A stretch of DNA of 51,594 nucleotides, the filler included, from Sphacelaria rigidula (lineage: Eukaryota): assembly GCA_964200075.2 (NCBI GenBank). It is 4 parts of 4 records of this genome, joined end to end, with 100 filler letters (N's around TTAATTAATTAA, not from the genome) between each part and the next. Parts side by side here need not be neighbours in the genome. Positions count along the whole stretch, not along the records: positions 12,926 to 25,749 come from CAXNAA020003389.1; 3 more parts are not named here. The stretch is one strand, 5' to 3'. A program made the position numbers and the translations under genes. Below the pieces are notes generated by a model that saw only the letters and a program-made list of their open reading frames with translations, had not been told where the DNA came from and made no database searches. This document shows, piece by piece, positions 7,779-38,772 of the stretch. The stretch's first letter is position 1, and each line of letters starts with the position of its first letter.

Positions 7779-7788
7779 NNNNNNNNNN
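7779..7788. other. 10-N scaffold gap flanked by low-quality poly-C sequence
   Basis: 10 Ns; long C homopolymers at about 7707-7748 and 7804-7882. Confidence 0.9.
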
Positions 7789-11021: not shown

Positions 11022-11465
11022 GCTCATCAACCGTTGCGCAGCGGCGCCAGCAGCATCCCTACAGGTGACGCCTGCAGGGCGAGGTACGACCACCTGGTCT
11101 TCGCTTCGGAACGATGTGCCGCCAGCAACAGAAGCACCAACAAGAGCAACACTCGCTCAACATCTGAGAGGATTCGGGGCAACGATGATACCGTTAGTGG
11201 CGATATTGCCGGTGCCCCACAGAGGCGACGGCTCCTCGAACTGGGAGCCTTGACCTTACTCGAGGCCGAGCTCGAGAGTTTGTCCGTCGCATCCGCTAGT
11301 GGCAACGCGCAGCAGGGGGGGAAGCAATCGACGGCCGCGGTGTGGGGATACGCCTCTTGTTTGAAGGCGATGGTGGACCGACACTACGACAACCTTTGTA
11401 AGTTGGCGTTTTTTGGTACATTGGGGAGGGTCGCGCATGTGCACGTGCAGAAGGAGGAAGCACAG
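11022..11465 (+). CDS. Probable internal exon of an unidentified, possibly helical-repeat protein; 3' boundary uncertain
   Basis: Open frame after acceptor ...AATGCAG|GCT. Protein-like text RRRLLELGALTLLEAELESL...AVWGYASCLKAMVDRHYDNLCKLAFFG. No family recognised. Confidence 0.4.
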
Positions 11466-12825: not shown

Positions 12826-12925
12826 NNNNNNNNNNNNNNNNNNNNNNNNNNNNNNNNNNNNNNNNNNNNTTAATTAATTAANNNNNNNNNNNNNNNNNNN
12901 NNNNNNNNNNNNNNNNNNNNNNNNN
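12826..12925. other. Artificial contig-joining linker (N44-TTAATTAATTAA-N44)
   Basis: Exactly 100 bp, with a six-frame stop core; identical to the two other linkers. Confidence 0.97.
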
Positions 12926-14546: not shown

Positions 14547-16664
14547 TCAGATCAAGGAAGGAGAGGAATAGGATAGCGCCAACTCCAGCTTCACATTCTC
14601 TACTCCTTCGCCAACCACCGTTTCCGTCTCGACCCCCGAGTGTCTCGATACTGTCGGTGAAAGTATACGATGCCGCTTGGGGCTTCGCTGACTGGTGAAA
14701 CAGCCATCAGCACTGCGGCAGTCGCTCAAGGATCGAACAGACCACCCGCTGGTCTTCCTTTTCCCACTGCGCACGGGAGTATGGCGGGAGACCACCAGCT
14801 CTAGCTTCATATTCGCCTCCTTGGAAATATCATCGTTCCCCGCGGACGGTTCCCCTGGGGCTTTCGGAAGCACCGGAGCAGCGGCGTTGCAGCCCTCGTG
14901 TACTGCACGACGAGTATCAACGGCACTGGTTGCATCGATACCGACACCGGTACATTCTTTGAGGGTTAATTCTCGTCCGTAGATAGCATCCCTACCCCCA
15001 CTCTTGCCTGGGTCATGAGTTGAGGGGAGCGGTTGATGGCCGAAGGTGGACATAGTGGGCATGTCCGCCATTTCGACAGCATGCTTGCGGCGGAAAGTCG
15101 GCTTGCTTTTACCCTGCAGATCACGCATGATGTACTTGGAGCAGCCCTCCTGGCCACACTTCTTCTTCACGACATCCACCATGGCCGTGCCAGCGAATTG
15201 AGCACCAAATCCCCCCCGCCTGCTGCCTGTCGTACCATTTGATGGCACCTTCGAGAAGCCCTCATGGCCGCATCTCTTGCTCACGACATCCACCATGGCC
15301 GTGCCAGCATGTTGAGCACCGAATGCCCCCCGCCTGCTGCCTACCGTACCATTTGATGGCACCTTCGAGAAGCCCTCCTGGCCGCACCTCTTGCTGACGA
15401 CATCCACCATGCCCCCGCCAGCATGTTGGGCGCAAAATTCTGCCTGCCTGTTGCCTACCGTACCGTATGACGGCTGTTTGGAGCAACCCTCCTGTCCGCA
15501 CCGCTTGACCACGACATTCACCATGCCCGCGCCAGCATGTTGAGAGTAGAATTCTGCCCGCCTGCTGCCTACCGTACCGTATGGAGGCTGTTTGGGGCAG
15601 CTCTCCTTGCCGCATCTCCTGCTCACGACAATCACCATGCCCGCGCCAGCATGTTGAGCGCAGAATTCAGCCCGCCTGCTGCCTATCGTACCGTATGACG
15701 GCTTTTTGGAGCAGCCCTCCTGGCCGCAACTCTTGTCCACGACATTCGCCATGCCCGCGTGAGCATGTTGAGCGCAGAATTCAGCCCGCCCGCTGCCTAC
15801 CGCACCGTACGACGGCCGCGTGGAGCAGCCCTCCTGCCCGCACTTCTTGCTCGCGACGTTGACCATGCCCGCGTCAGCATGTTGAGCGCAGTATTCCGCT
15901 TGTCCGCTGCCTATTGCACCGTATGACGGCTTTTTGAAGCAGCCCTCTTGCACGCAACTCTTGCTCACGATGTTGACCATGCCCCCGCCAGCATGTTGAG
16001 CGCAGAATTCCCGCCGCCTGCTGGCTACCGTACCGTATGACGCCTTTTTGGAGCAGCCCTCTTGCCCGCACATCTTGCTCACGACGTTGACCATGCCCGT
16101 GCCAGCATGTTGAGCGCAGTATTCAGCCCGCCTGCTGCCTTTCGCACCGTATGACGGATTTTTGGAGCAGCCCTCCTGCCCGCATCTCCTGCTCAAGACG
16201 TTCACCATGCCCGCGCCAGCATGTTGAGCGCAGAATTCCGCCCGCCTGCTGCCTACCGTAGCGTATGACGGCCATTTGGAGCAGCCCTCCTGGCCACACC
16301 TCTTGCTCACGACATCCACCATGCCCGCGCCAGCATGTTGAGCGCAGAATTCCCGCCGCCTGCTGCCTACCGTACCGTATGACGCCTTTTTGGAGCAGCC
16401 CTCTTGCCCGCACATCTTGCTCACGACGTTGACCATGCCCGTGCCAGCATGTTGAGCGCAGTATTCAGCCCGCCTGCTGCCTACCGTACTATATGACGGC
16501 CATTTGAAGCAACCCTGCTCGCCGCATCTCTTGCCCACGACGTTTACCATGCCCGCGTCAGCATGTTGAGCGCAGAATTTTGCCCGCCTGCTGCCTACCG
16601 TACCGTATGACGGCTTTTTTGAGCAGCCCTCCCGCCCGCAACTCTTGCTCACGACGTTCACCAT
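14547..16664 (-). CDS. EsV-1-7 cysteine-rich repeat protein (IMMEDIATE UPRIGHT-like family), ~705 aa from first in-frame ATG
   Basis: Uninterrupted ORF with 13 full and 1 degenerate 38-aa units matching C-X4-C-X16-C-X2-H-X12. The ORF-track start at 16739 is a TTG; the first ATG (16664) is in a GCCATGG context. Low-complexity C-terminal tail with basic clusters and two [MV]KLEL motifs. Confidence 0.88.
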   Translation of the reverse strand: MVNVVSKSCGREGCSKKPSYGTVGSRRAKFCAQHADAGMVNVVGKRCGEQGCFKWPSYSTVGSRRAEYCAQHAGTGMVNVVSKMCGQEGCSKKASYGTVGSRRREFCAQHAGAGMVDVVSKRCGQEGCSKWPSYATVGSRRAEFCAQHAGAGMVNVLSRRCGQEGCSKNPSYGAKGSRRAEYCAQHAGTGMVNVVSKMCGQEGCSKKASYGTVASRRREFCAQHAGGGMVNIVSKSCVQEGCFKKPSYGAIGSGQAEYCAQHADAGMVNVASKKCGQEGCSTRPSYGAVGSGRAEFCAQHAHAGMANVVDKSCGQEGCSKKPSYGTIGSRRAEFCAQHAGAGMVIVVSRRCGKESCPKQPPYGTVGSRRAEFYSQHAGAGMVNVVVKRCGQEGCSKQPSYGTVGNRQAEFCAQHAGGGMVDVVSKRCGQEGFSKVPSNGTVGSRRGAFGAQHAGTAMVDVVSKRCGHEGFSKVPSNGTTGSRRGGFGAQFAGTAMVDVVKKKCGQEGCSKYIMRDLQGKSKPTFRRKHAVEMADMPTMSTFGHQPLPSTHDPGKSGGRDAIYGRELTLKECTGVGIDATSAVDTRRAVHEGCNAAAPVLPKAPGEPSAGNDDISKEANMKLELVVSRHTPVRSGKRKTSGWSVRSLSDCRSADGCFTSQRSPKRHRILSPTVSRHSGVETETVVGEGVENVKLELALSYSSPSLI

Positions 16665-16801
16665 GGCTGTGGCAGCCTGCTGAGTGCAGAATTCCACCCG
16701 CGTGCTGTCTACCGAACGTCTGGCGGTCGCTTCGAACAACCTTCCATGCCGAACGTCTTACTCACGACATCCAACATGCCCGCGCCAGCATATTGAGGGC
16801 A
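15081..16801 (-). repeat. 114-bp coding tandem repeat array (EsV-1-7 units), ~15 units including a frameshifted 5' unit
   Basis: Period 114 bp; unit 1 Cys codon at 16640, unit 14 Cys codon at 15158; degenerate unit upstream at about 16641-16801. Confidence 0.95.
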
Positions 16802-18187
16802 AACTCTCCCGTTTGGACAGCCCGCTACACCACAGAGGGATTTATTGAGCACCTTACGGCGGAGCACTGAGGAGATATCGCTTACACAGGGCAAGGACGG
16901 AGTCGAACTTCACACACGTCGTCTTGGCCACAGGAACTCGCTCCGTCACATCCGCCCCACGACCAGGAGCTCCGACTGTAGTTCAGAAGTTTGTTCCGAG
17001 CATGGAGAGGAGGCCGGTCATTTAGCAGGGCAATACAGACGGTGTCAGCTTTTCCACACTGGTTCGGTGCAGTCAAGAGAGGGAAGCAAACTAACATGCC
17101 CTCAGGTCGTCGACAGAAGCACCATCAGTACGGTTGTTCACAGTGAGCCTCACCGCATGTGCTGAACAGTTCGGAAGCAGGCCGCATCTCGAGCACTAGA
17201 ATGCCCCCCCCGCCCACCGCCGGCAACAAATGGACCATACGTGAGAGTTGAACGGTGAAGAAAGTTCGAAGAGGAAATATTCCTACCGGTAACCCTGCTG
17301 CTCGAGGTAGAGGTGAAACAGGGTTCAAAAAGTGGAAACTGTAAGTGTCTACGCGGCGTGGATTTTGATGGGCTCGCAAGGGATCGCAAAAATTTGATCG
17401 CCAGAATTGAGAGTCGGGTTAGCCTGATCAGTAGTGTGGGTCGGTTCCGGCTGTACCTGTGTATAAGCTTTGAGTTGCCTTCATGTTTCCCCGAAGGAAG
17501 CGAGTGAGAAAGAGAGAACACGTGCACATACACGATATGTCTACAGTTGCGTGTGAGGATGTATAGAATCCTCGGTTCACCATGGGAAGATGACGCGAGG
17601 AGACTTTCGTGCCGCCGTTCAGTACAAGTCTGCTCTTGTATGGGAGTGCGTACTCATTTAGAAATCAGCACGCACTTTTTTATCCTGCAGCTTTTCCAAG
17701 CTTCGACCCTTCAATTCGGGATATTCAACCCTGAGTAGATGAAAAAAAAGGGGTGCAGAACCTGCCTTTGTAAATTGCTGAATGATCTGAACAATGGTGA
17801 ACATCCGTTCTGTACGCACACGAATCAGCCTTGCAGTGCCTCGGAAACACACTTCCGCATCCACACACATTCTCACGTGAACCTGGTATGGTATGCCAGT
17901 GAATGTTTGAGCATCGTTGCTGTTCAAATTAGATTTCTCCTCAGGTTTCTGGTCATCACGCGTCATCACGAGTGATGACGAATTCTGTTTGATCCCAAGC
18001 TTTGAGAATAGAGAGACATTGATACCGATCACGATTCCTGAAGAAGCAACCCCAGACCAATTTTACGAGCCTGGTCCGGCGAAAACCCGGCGTGCTCCGT
18101 CCCGGCTTTATAGGAATGCGAGGTCAATGGTCTCGTGACCGTGATATGCAAGACAATGACTTCCTCGCCCCACGCGCCTCCCCCACT

Positions 18188-25749: not shown

Positions 25750-25849
25750 NNNNNNNNNNNNNNNNNNNNNNNNNNNNNNNNNNNNNNNNNNNNTTAATTA
25801 ATTAANNNNNNNNNNNNNNNNNNNNNNNNNNNNNNNNNNNNNNNNNNNN
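25750..25849. other. Artificial contig-joining linker
   Basis: Same N44-TTAATTAATTAA-N44 structure. Confidence 0.97.
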
Positions 25850-38672: not shown

Positions 38673-38772
38673 NNNNNNNNNNNNNNNNNNNNNNNNNNNN
38701 NNNNNNNNNNNNNNNNTTAATTAATTAANNNNNNNNNNNNNNNNNNNNNNNNNNNNNNNNNNNNNNNNNNNN
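38673..38772. other. Artificial contig-joining linker
   Basis: Same N44-TTAATTAATTAA-N44 structure. Confidence 0.97.

Follow-up and report, generated by a model that had tools for sequence, protein, structure and literature searches.

The window analyzed here, a 51,594-nt stretch of the Sphacelaria rigidula genome (assembly GCA_964200075.2) in four joined parts, carries on its minus strand a gene for a tandem array of EsV-1-7 units, 38-residue modules with a zinc-finger-like set of cysteine and histidine residues. Comparison of units within and between proteins of this family shows that, in arrays of the brown-alga type, unit specificity is genuinely highest at position 9, counted from the first cysteine of the unit. 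Position 9 is the peak of a small variable set (positions 7, 9, 11, 24/25, 35, 36 and -1, the last being the residue that precedes the first cysteine) rather than a lone site akin to the repeat-variable diresidue (RVD) of transcription activator-like effectors (TALEs). The encoded protein is best viewed as a zinc-module array that has expanded recently and is probably expressed; its basic surface, with the variable patch, would bind a polyanion, for which DNA or RNA is the most plausible candidate. This reading is assigned a probability of roughly one half. The readings weighed below partly overlap, and their likelihoods are not exclusive shares. The focus of the variation on position 9 and its neighbors, in a basic and acid-free context, provides concrete residues and the hypothesis of a polyanion-contact patch.

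The locus belongs to the EsV-1-7 family

The family motif is C-x4-C-x16-C-x2-H, with about 12 residues between motifs, and the founding paper of the family is that of Macaisne et al. in 2017. The locus is an ordinary gene of this family, to which the earlier note on this DNA had rightly assigned it: its frame matches Pfam EsV_1_7_cys (PF19114) in 12 stretches with a score of 565.3 bits, against a gathering cut-off of 25 (E 2.3e-174). PF19114 is present in all 92 and all 64 homologues among the matches listed for two homologue sets, and the unit profile is matched by 3007 cluster representatives at E <= 0.001. The best named homologues are proteins of Sphacelaria, Ectocarpus, Pylaiella, Scytosiphon and Ascophyllum, those of S. 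rigidula being the closest, and giant-virus proteins are matched too. Over the best 92 homologues plus the window frame, the number of unit hits per protein has a median of 6 and reaches at most 15; with its 14 units, the window array is long for this set.

The literature describes EsV-1-7 genes, of which brown algae have about 2000, as the largest orthogroup reported across brown-algal genomes, with tandem arrays and family expansion. It also presents the family as common to brown algae and giant viruses, as including a developmental regulator and as being of unknown biochemical function, and one paper terms the motif only a possible zinc finger. The family, its expansion and its viral link are already in print, and what is new here, namely where the unit-to-unit variation sits, is a modest refinement. 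The covered portion of the literature naming 'EsV-1-7' makes no mention of a unit-specific variable residue; the founding paper and preprint supplements lie outside that coverage, and a sequence logo or Table S17 of a 2024 preprint may already show the pattern.

Position 9 is the most unit-specific residue

The 14 units, designated 2-15, follow one another in register. Position 9 reads K, W, K, W, N, K, K, R, K, Q, Q, V, V, Y, exactly as described in the earlier note, and is encoded by the codons AAG, TGG, AAT, CGG, CAG, GTG and TAC that it listed; the changes between them, which it regarded as multi-base, form mostly single-step chains (AAG-CAG-CGG-TGG and AAG-AAT). The 14 units indeed share one array scaffold, but the full ligand set is present in only ten, both V units, the Y unit and one of the Q units being degenerate. 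Nor is the scaffold near-invariant across the family, as the median unit identity within other arrays is only 0.54.

Codon 9 is the most changed codon of the window array, with seven amino-acid changes by parsimony versus five for the next codons. It also has the highest proportion of nonsynonymous differences (pN), which amounts to 2.15 times the array-wide proportion of synonymous differences (pS) at a guanine-plus-cytosine (GC) content of 61%. Simulated arrays contained some codon as extreme as this one in 4.7% of cases at a uniform omega of 0.59 and in 23% at omega 1.

The family set comprised 394 EsV-1-7 proteins, from which units were cut in two ways, by hidden Markov model (HMM) and by ligand-spacing pattern, and the within-array variability of a column was defined as the fraction of differing unit pairs inside one protein. 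Among the HMM-defined intact units (64 arrays, 299 units), position 9 scored 0.80 versus 0.63 for the next core column, position 11 (Wilcoxon P = 7.5e-4), was top or joint top in 30 of the 64 arrays, and had a within/between ratio of 0.92, compared with about 0.6-0.7 for most other columns. With pattern-defined units (139 arrays, 784 units), position 9 (0.81) was followed by positions 36 (0.79, P = 0.097) and 35 (0.76, P = 0.012) and by positions 7, 29, 25 and 11 (0.65-0.67, P < 1e-5 versus position 9); the variability order in the 35 most homogeneous of these arrays was 9, 36, 11, 35, 33, -1. The full collection of x16-spaced arrays (205 arrays, 1157 units) yielded 0.81 for position 9, 0.80 for position 36, 0.74 for position 35 and 0.69 for position 11, with position 9 ranking first, alone or jointly, in 68 of the 205. 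Among x16-spaced hits to a giant-virus array (66 arrays, 373 units), positions 36 and 9 were equal at 0.80 and position 11 reached 0.79, and in x15-spaced arrays (51 arrays, 283 units) position 9 was only the fifth most variable. The anticipated variability peak at position 9 thus exists within arrays family-wide, but the notion of a unique RVD-like site has to be abandoned: position 36 is statistically tied with it, positions 35, 11, 7 and 24-25 are close, and in the x15 arrays other columns lead.

Codon 9 is also the top pN codon (2.47 times pS) in an unrelated 12-unit array of 29% GC on a giant-virus contig, this and the window array being the only two that were read as DNA. Its first rank at both 61% and 29% GC argues against a local mutational hot spot. 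A CGG/CpG hot spot as the sole cause of the codon-9 variation was rejected, given that codon 9 is top in the 29% GC viral array.

The same variation may reflect nothing but relaxed constraint. On this account the variable sites, position 9 included, are surface-exposed residues of little importance beyond the avoidance of negative charge next to a basic patch; they diverge fastest after unit duplication and encode no specificity. The 23% of neutral simulations in which some codon reaches the codon-9 excess of the window are consistent with this account, as are the linker positions 35 and 36, which vary as much as position 9, the 45% share of R plus Q among position-9 residues, and the finding that co-variation with position 9 exceeds z = 2.1 in none of the columns. 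Moreover, in 282 units matched across 98 pairs of related proteins, the mismatch of 0.67 at position 9 is exceeded at the faster-changing positions 29 (0.76) and 25 (0.72). However, position 9 is top in independent array sets and in both arrays read as DNA, whose base compositions differ greatly, its 1.4% of D/E indicates that the site is constrained, and its within/between ratio is well above those of the equally diverse columns 2 and 7 (0.64-0.66). Relaxed constraint by itself is regarded as a possible, though doubtful, explanation.

Residue -1 and its pairing with position 9

The residues at position -1 of units 2-15 are S, R, M, R, R, M, S, K, S, R, R, R, R, K, again as given in the earlier note, which had seen in them a rule that ties -1 to position 9. 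Within the window the rule is perfect, as a non-basic -1 accompanies K at position 9 in 5/5 units and a basic -1 does so in 0/8. These 13 units reduce to only 7 distinct (-1, 9) pairs, the majority of which occur in two units, and a hand calculation on the 7 gives a Fisher P of 1/21. The -1 and 9 codons are 27 nt apart, so that they share their duplication history. The co-variation does not extend to the family, where the mutual information between the two positions is not above that of within-protein shuffles (z = 0.2), S at -1 is accompanied by K at 9 in 0/24 units and M by K in 4/35, and the giant-virus array does not obey the rule. There is a weak family-wide trend, position 9 being basic in 34% of units with a non-basic -1 versus 28% (shuffle P = 0.035). 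In a single unit of the four-unit structural model described below, DSSP labels both -1 and 9 as isolated bridge residues, whose bridge partners the output does not name; the two positions may accordingly be spatial neighbors.

A strict TALE-like code, in which each unit reads one base or short motif with position 9 and -1 as the specificity residues, would draw on the top rank of position 9 within arrays, on the bridge marks and the weak trend, and on the ten intact units of the window, whose two most variable columns are -1 (0.78) and 9 (0.76). Yet several other positions are equally variable, unit identity in most arrays is too low for a near-invariant scaffold, and the pairing rule fails both in the family and in the viral array. 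Furthermore, 4 of the 14 'code' residues of the window, namely V, V, Y and one Q, come from degenerate units without a full ligand set, and the predicted template modeling score (pTM) of 0.50 for the four-unit model does not place the units confidently in a solenoid. A code of this kind is considered very improbable.

Charge, predicted fold and putative metal site

R, Q, I, H and K together account for 68% of the position-9 residues in the 1157 units, whereas only 16 units have D or E there. Its surroundings are rich in basic residues, which account for 94% of residues at position -1, 66% at position 8, 65% at position 18 and 56% at position 19, while positions 4, 21, 29 and 33 are often acidic. 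The mean net charge of a unit is +2.7, 86% of 985 units are positive, and the window array has a net charge of +42 and an isoelectric point of 9.5. The scarcity of acidic residues at position 9 amid conserved basic positions fits contact with a negatively charged ligand.

An AlphaFold2 model of four units (window 16188-16643) had a mean predicted local distance difference test (pLDDT) value of 89 and showed in every unit two strands, at 12-14 and 31-33, with a bridge at 22 and a helical turn at 24-26 between them. The knuckle-hairpin-helix layout is shared with treble-clef fingers, a group with many protein-binding members, and this counts in favor of an alternative in which the array is a protein-binding scaffold built of small zinc modules, as in RING, LIM and MIZ fingers, with the variable patch selecting protein partners. 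The sole structural match at Z >= 2 is likewise a RING domain (IDOL, Z 2.3), and weak Pfam likenesses were detected to zf-MIZ (3/104 members) and to an RBR E3 domain (1/104). All such matches, however, are far below significance, no fused partner domain occurs in the 104 representatives, and the strong conserved positive charge together with the exclusion of acidic residues at position 9 is more typical of nucleic-acid binders. A protein scaffold is judged unlikely.

A search of the PDB by sequence gave no match, the unit profile retrieved from it only short look-alikes (plastocyanin, E 0.036; a 14-residue likeness to a GLI finger, E 5.6), and the ESM Atlas, with PF19114 excluded, gave no usable match. 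Positions 1-37 of the 75-position profile of the SBP domain (PF03110) align with the window units at 31.4 bits summed over four units (E 2.3e-7), no single stretch passing alone, and the full domain with its two zinc sites was not found. The likeness to SBP, as judged from the profile, appears weak and not specific.

The methionine in the second half of the unit is nearly as conserved as the Cys/His ligands (258/268 units). Unit positions 22-33 (window 15390-16643), FCAQHAGAGMVN, share 10/12 residues with the copper-binding loop of plastocyanin, YCAPHAGAGMVG, in the E 0.036 match, a look-alike of the form Cys-x2-His-x4-Met, and one family member also matches Pfam Copper-bind at E 5.6e-4.

Gene model, array anatomy and history

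All features described in this section are on the minus strand. A stop-to-stop open frame of 736 aa (14547-16757), the longest in the window, contains the array and a C-terminal tail. Tandem Repeats Finder delimits the repeats at 15136-16801, with a period of 114 nt, 14.6 copies, 82% matches and 0% indels, and in the protein the 14 tandem units have a period of exactly 38 aa and are free of indels, with C-x4-C-x16-C-x2-H complete in ten of them. The likely coding sequence (14547-16664) specifies 705 aa, and its translation probably starts at the ATG at 16662-16664, which corresponds to the conserved repeat Met of 'MVNVVSK' directly before unit 2. Among six S. rigidula gene models whose N-termini were compared, five (P0004, P0024, P0098, P0118 and P0135) begin at the same repeat Met (MVNVV.../MVDVV.../MANVV...), and the sixth, P0001, begins with MTSVAKREC. 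The repeat-internal start in these five models is either a genuine start of the family or a systematic truncation of arrays by gene callers.

Units 2-10 (15618-16643) are nine intact units of the form C-x4-C-x16-C-x2-H-x12, with K, W, K, W, N, K, K, R and K at position 9. Unit 11 (15504-15617), with Q at position 9, has lost the third zinc ligand through the replacement of Cys23 by Tyr, and unit 12 (15390-15503), also with Q, is intact. Units 13 and 14 (15162-15389), both with V, have Phe in place of Cys6 and Gly in place of Cys23, unit 14 in addition has Phe in place of His26, and the two are sister copies (tree support 1.0). Unit 15 (15048-15161), with Y, retains Cys1 and Cys6 and then decays, with no Cys23, passing into a decayed unit that opens the 195-aa C-terminal tail (14550-15134), for which no Pfam family was matched. 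The position-9 codons recur every 114 nt, from 16614-16616 in unit 2 to 15132-15134 in unit 15, and so do the -1 codons below the first one at 16641-16643.

Aligned along its entire length, the tail shares 56% identity with the C-terminus of P0135, an S. rigidula protein (E 3.6e-59). A second S. rigidula protein, P0098, has a degenerate unit similar to units 13-14, and the junction 'CSKYIMRDL' of unit 15 is conserved in P0098, its 'IMRDL' part also in P0135. Thirteen units of the window correspond to only one or two in these relatives, which share the tail and 3' units; this indicates that the center of the array expanded recently and that its 3' end is older.

Upstream of the array, two decayed units lie in another frame (16644-16909). 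The frame is broken near 16714, where the window is 1 nt short of the repeat consensus. In runs X1 and X4, the sole DNA contigs over this site differ from the window by an added T and by three bases close to it. The added T would join the upstream decayed units to the main frame; it may stem from strain or allelic variation, from a paralogue or from misassembly of the window.

The array-wide pN/pS ratio of the window is 0.59, a value reached or undercut in 1.1% of 1000 neutral simulations (omega = 1) on the unit tree, and the array is thus under weak purifying selection. Contigs of two runs of one study, whose RNA nature is a guess and which are available as contigs only, match 14698-15154 and 15234-15480 exactly. 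Their cover extends over 14698-16735, ends in the bin 16622-16735 and is zero in 16736-17400, where the DNA runs go on. This constitutes a weak hint of transcription of the gene; none of the runs on record as RNA contains the stretch.

The locus might instead be a pseudogene or dying copy, in which case the pattern would be drift in a dead array. Such decay would agree with the frameshift in the upstream units, the missing ligands in 4 of 14 units, a pN/pS ratio that signals only mild constraint, and the fact that the stretch is found in no run on record as RNA. It is difficult to reconcile with a 2.2-kb frame free of stops where the next-longest frame in the window has 264 aa, with a pN/pS below the neutral expectation (P = 0.011), and with the conservation of the tail and the degenerate 3' units in other S. 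rigidula proteins. In addition, the frameshift lies upstream of the Met at which five of the six S. rigidula models begin, and the DNA contigs of two runs lack it. Decay of the gene is rated as quite improbable.

Proposed function

In the favored polyanion-binding scheme, the array would have grown recently by duplication of 114-nt units, leaving young and similar units in the center and older, decayed ones at both ends. Each intact 38-aa unit would most likely fold around one zinc ion bound by Cys1, Cys6, Cys23 and His26. The predicted unit consists of a knuckle, a hairpin and a short helical turn, and would have a positively charged surface. Positions 7, 9 and 11 adjacent to the knuckle, together with linker positions 35 and 36 and the -1 residue of the next unit, may form the contact surface. 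The partner would be a polyanion, most likely DNA or RNA, and the protein presumably a modular nucleic-acid binder with unit-specific contacts.

Several results weigh against this scheme. The codon-9 excess in the window alone is borderline, between related proteins positions 29 and 25 differ more often than position 9, and 4 of the 14 window units lack a complete ligand set. The structural support is limited as well: with the pTM of 0.50 the relative placement of units is not confident, the single-unit AlphaFold2 model (pLDDT 53.5) is too poor to use, a Foldseek search of the four-unit model against the PDB found nothing at E <= 0.001, and the IDOL RING domain was the best match of a wide VIA structure search, of which a second look found nothing at Z >= 2. 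SBP likeness at E <= 0.01 is seen in only 4/104 independent family members, similar to other cysteine-rich families. Finally, a basic surface with variable exposed residues would also fit a protein or an acidic polysaccharide as the partner.

A bolder proposal is that EsV-1-7 arrays constitute an unrecognized class of modular sequence-reading nucleic-acid binders, in which each zinc unit contacts a short piece of DNA or RNA through the patch of position 9 with 7, 11 and 35/36/-1. This is given only a slim chance. If true, the brown-algal and giant-virus expansions would represent a diversifying repertoire of regulators or virus-host weapons, and the family could supply missing brown-algal transcription factors. 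A recent preprint (10.64898/2026.04.27.720984) reports a CWGCWG motif that is enriched upstream of brown-algal coding sequences and has no exact known match, the closest being C2H2 zinc-finger sites; a tie between this motif and EsV-1-7 proteins is speculation.

Giant-virus relatives

Predicted structures in BFVD that match the model include the viral EsV-1-7 protein (Q8QNQ2, 49% identity, E 5e-17) and 27 other giant-virus proteins (E <= 0.001). Four of the matched proteins are annotated 'Endonuclease' (from Faunusvirus, a cedratvirus and two Pithovirus) and one 'DNA primase'. If these are true fusions, they would point to DNA targeting. No nuclease Pfam domain was present in the 104 representatives, a set of 13 proteins, the viral loci or the precomputed Pfam assignments of the homologues.

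A unit-alignment scan of viral contigs detected four loci, three of them with the same unit sequences. In these three, L001-L003 on IMG/VR giant-virus contigs, all EsV-1-7 units are identical among the loci. The units of L002 are contained in a 684-aa frame with 13 Pfam stretches, and two further small EsV-1-7 frames are located directly downstream.

Remainder of the window

The rest of the window contains no other EsV-1-7 units, the one regular-expression match (11065-11142) being devoid of any family residues, and 12 other window frames scanned against Pfam matched no family. Runs of N occupy 7779-7788, 12826-12925, 25750-25849 and 38673-38772. Three of the N runs comprise paired 44+44-base blocks, are spaced ~12.92 kb apart and have unrelated flanks; they look like masking or scaffold gaps.

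Comparison with known systems

The window array has the same motif, spacing and 38-aa period as other EsV-1-7 proteins such as viral EsV-1-7 and Ectocarpus IMMEDIATE UPRIGHT (IMM). It differs from them in its length of 14 units and in its tail, which is common only to a few S. rigidula proteins. Judged by description rather than by sequence, the N-terminal domain of IMM, which is reported as unique to that protein, is not part of the window gene.

The ligand spacing C-x4-C-x16-C-x2-H of the window units is the same as that of the first zinc site of the SBP domain, a plant DNA-binding domain. In contrast, the second zinc site and the basic C-terminal part of that domain are absent from the window units, and no SBP structure appeared in the fold searches.

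TALE repeats with their RVDs are likewise tandem units of similar length (34 versus 38 aa) in which one position differs most. The window unit, however, is a zinc module and not a helical hairpin, four to six EsV-1-7 positions are nearly as variable as position 9, and the units in most arrays are only about 54% identical. Neither a one-to-one code nor a superhelix is supported for EsV-1-7 arrays.

The C2H2 arrays of the PRDM9/KRAB type resemble the window array in being minisatellite-like coding repeats that duplication keeps similar, with variation at few exposed positions, and in the window pN exceeds pS at the top codon. The window finger, unlike theirs, is Cys-Cys-Cys-His with 4/16/2 spacing and gives no zf-C2H2 Pfam match, its variable sites follow the knuckle and lie in the linker rather than on a recognition helix, DNA binding of the window array is a prediction, and selection is not significant in the single array. 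The closest known pattern is probably that of PRDM9-type zinc-finger minisatellites, whose similar coding repeats vary chiefly at contact residues, more than that of the TALE repeat.

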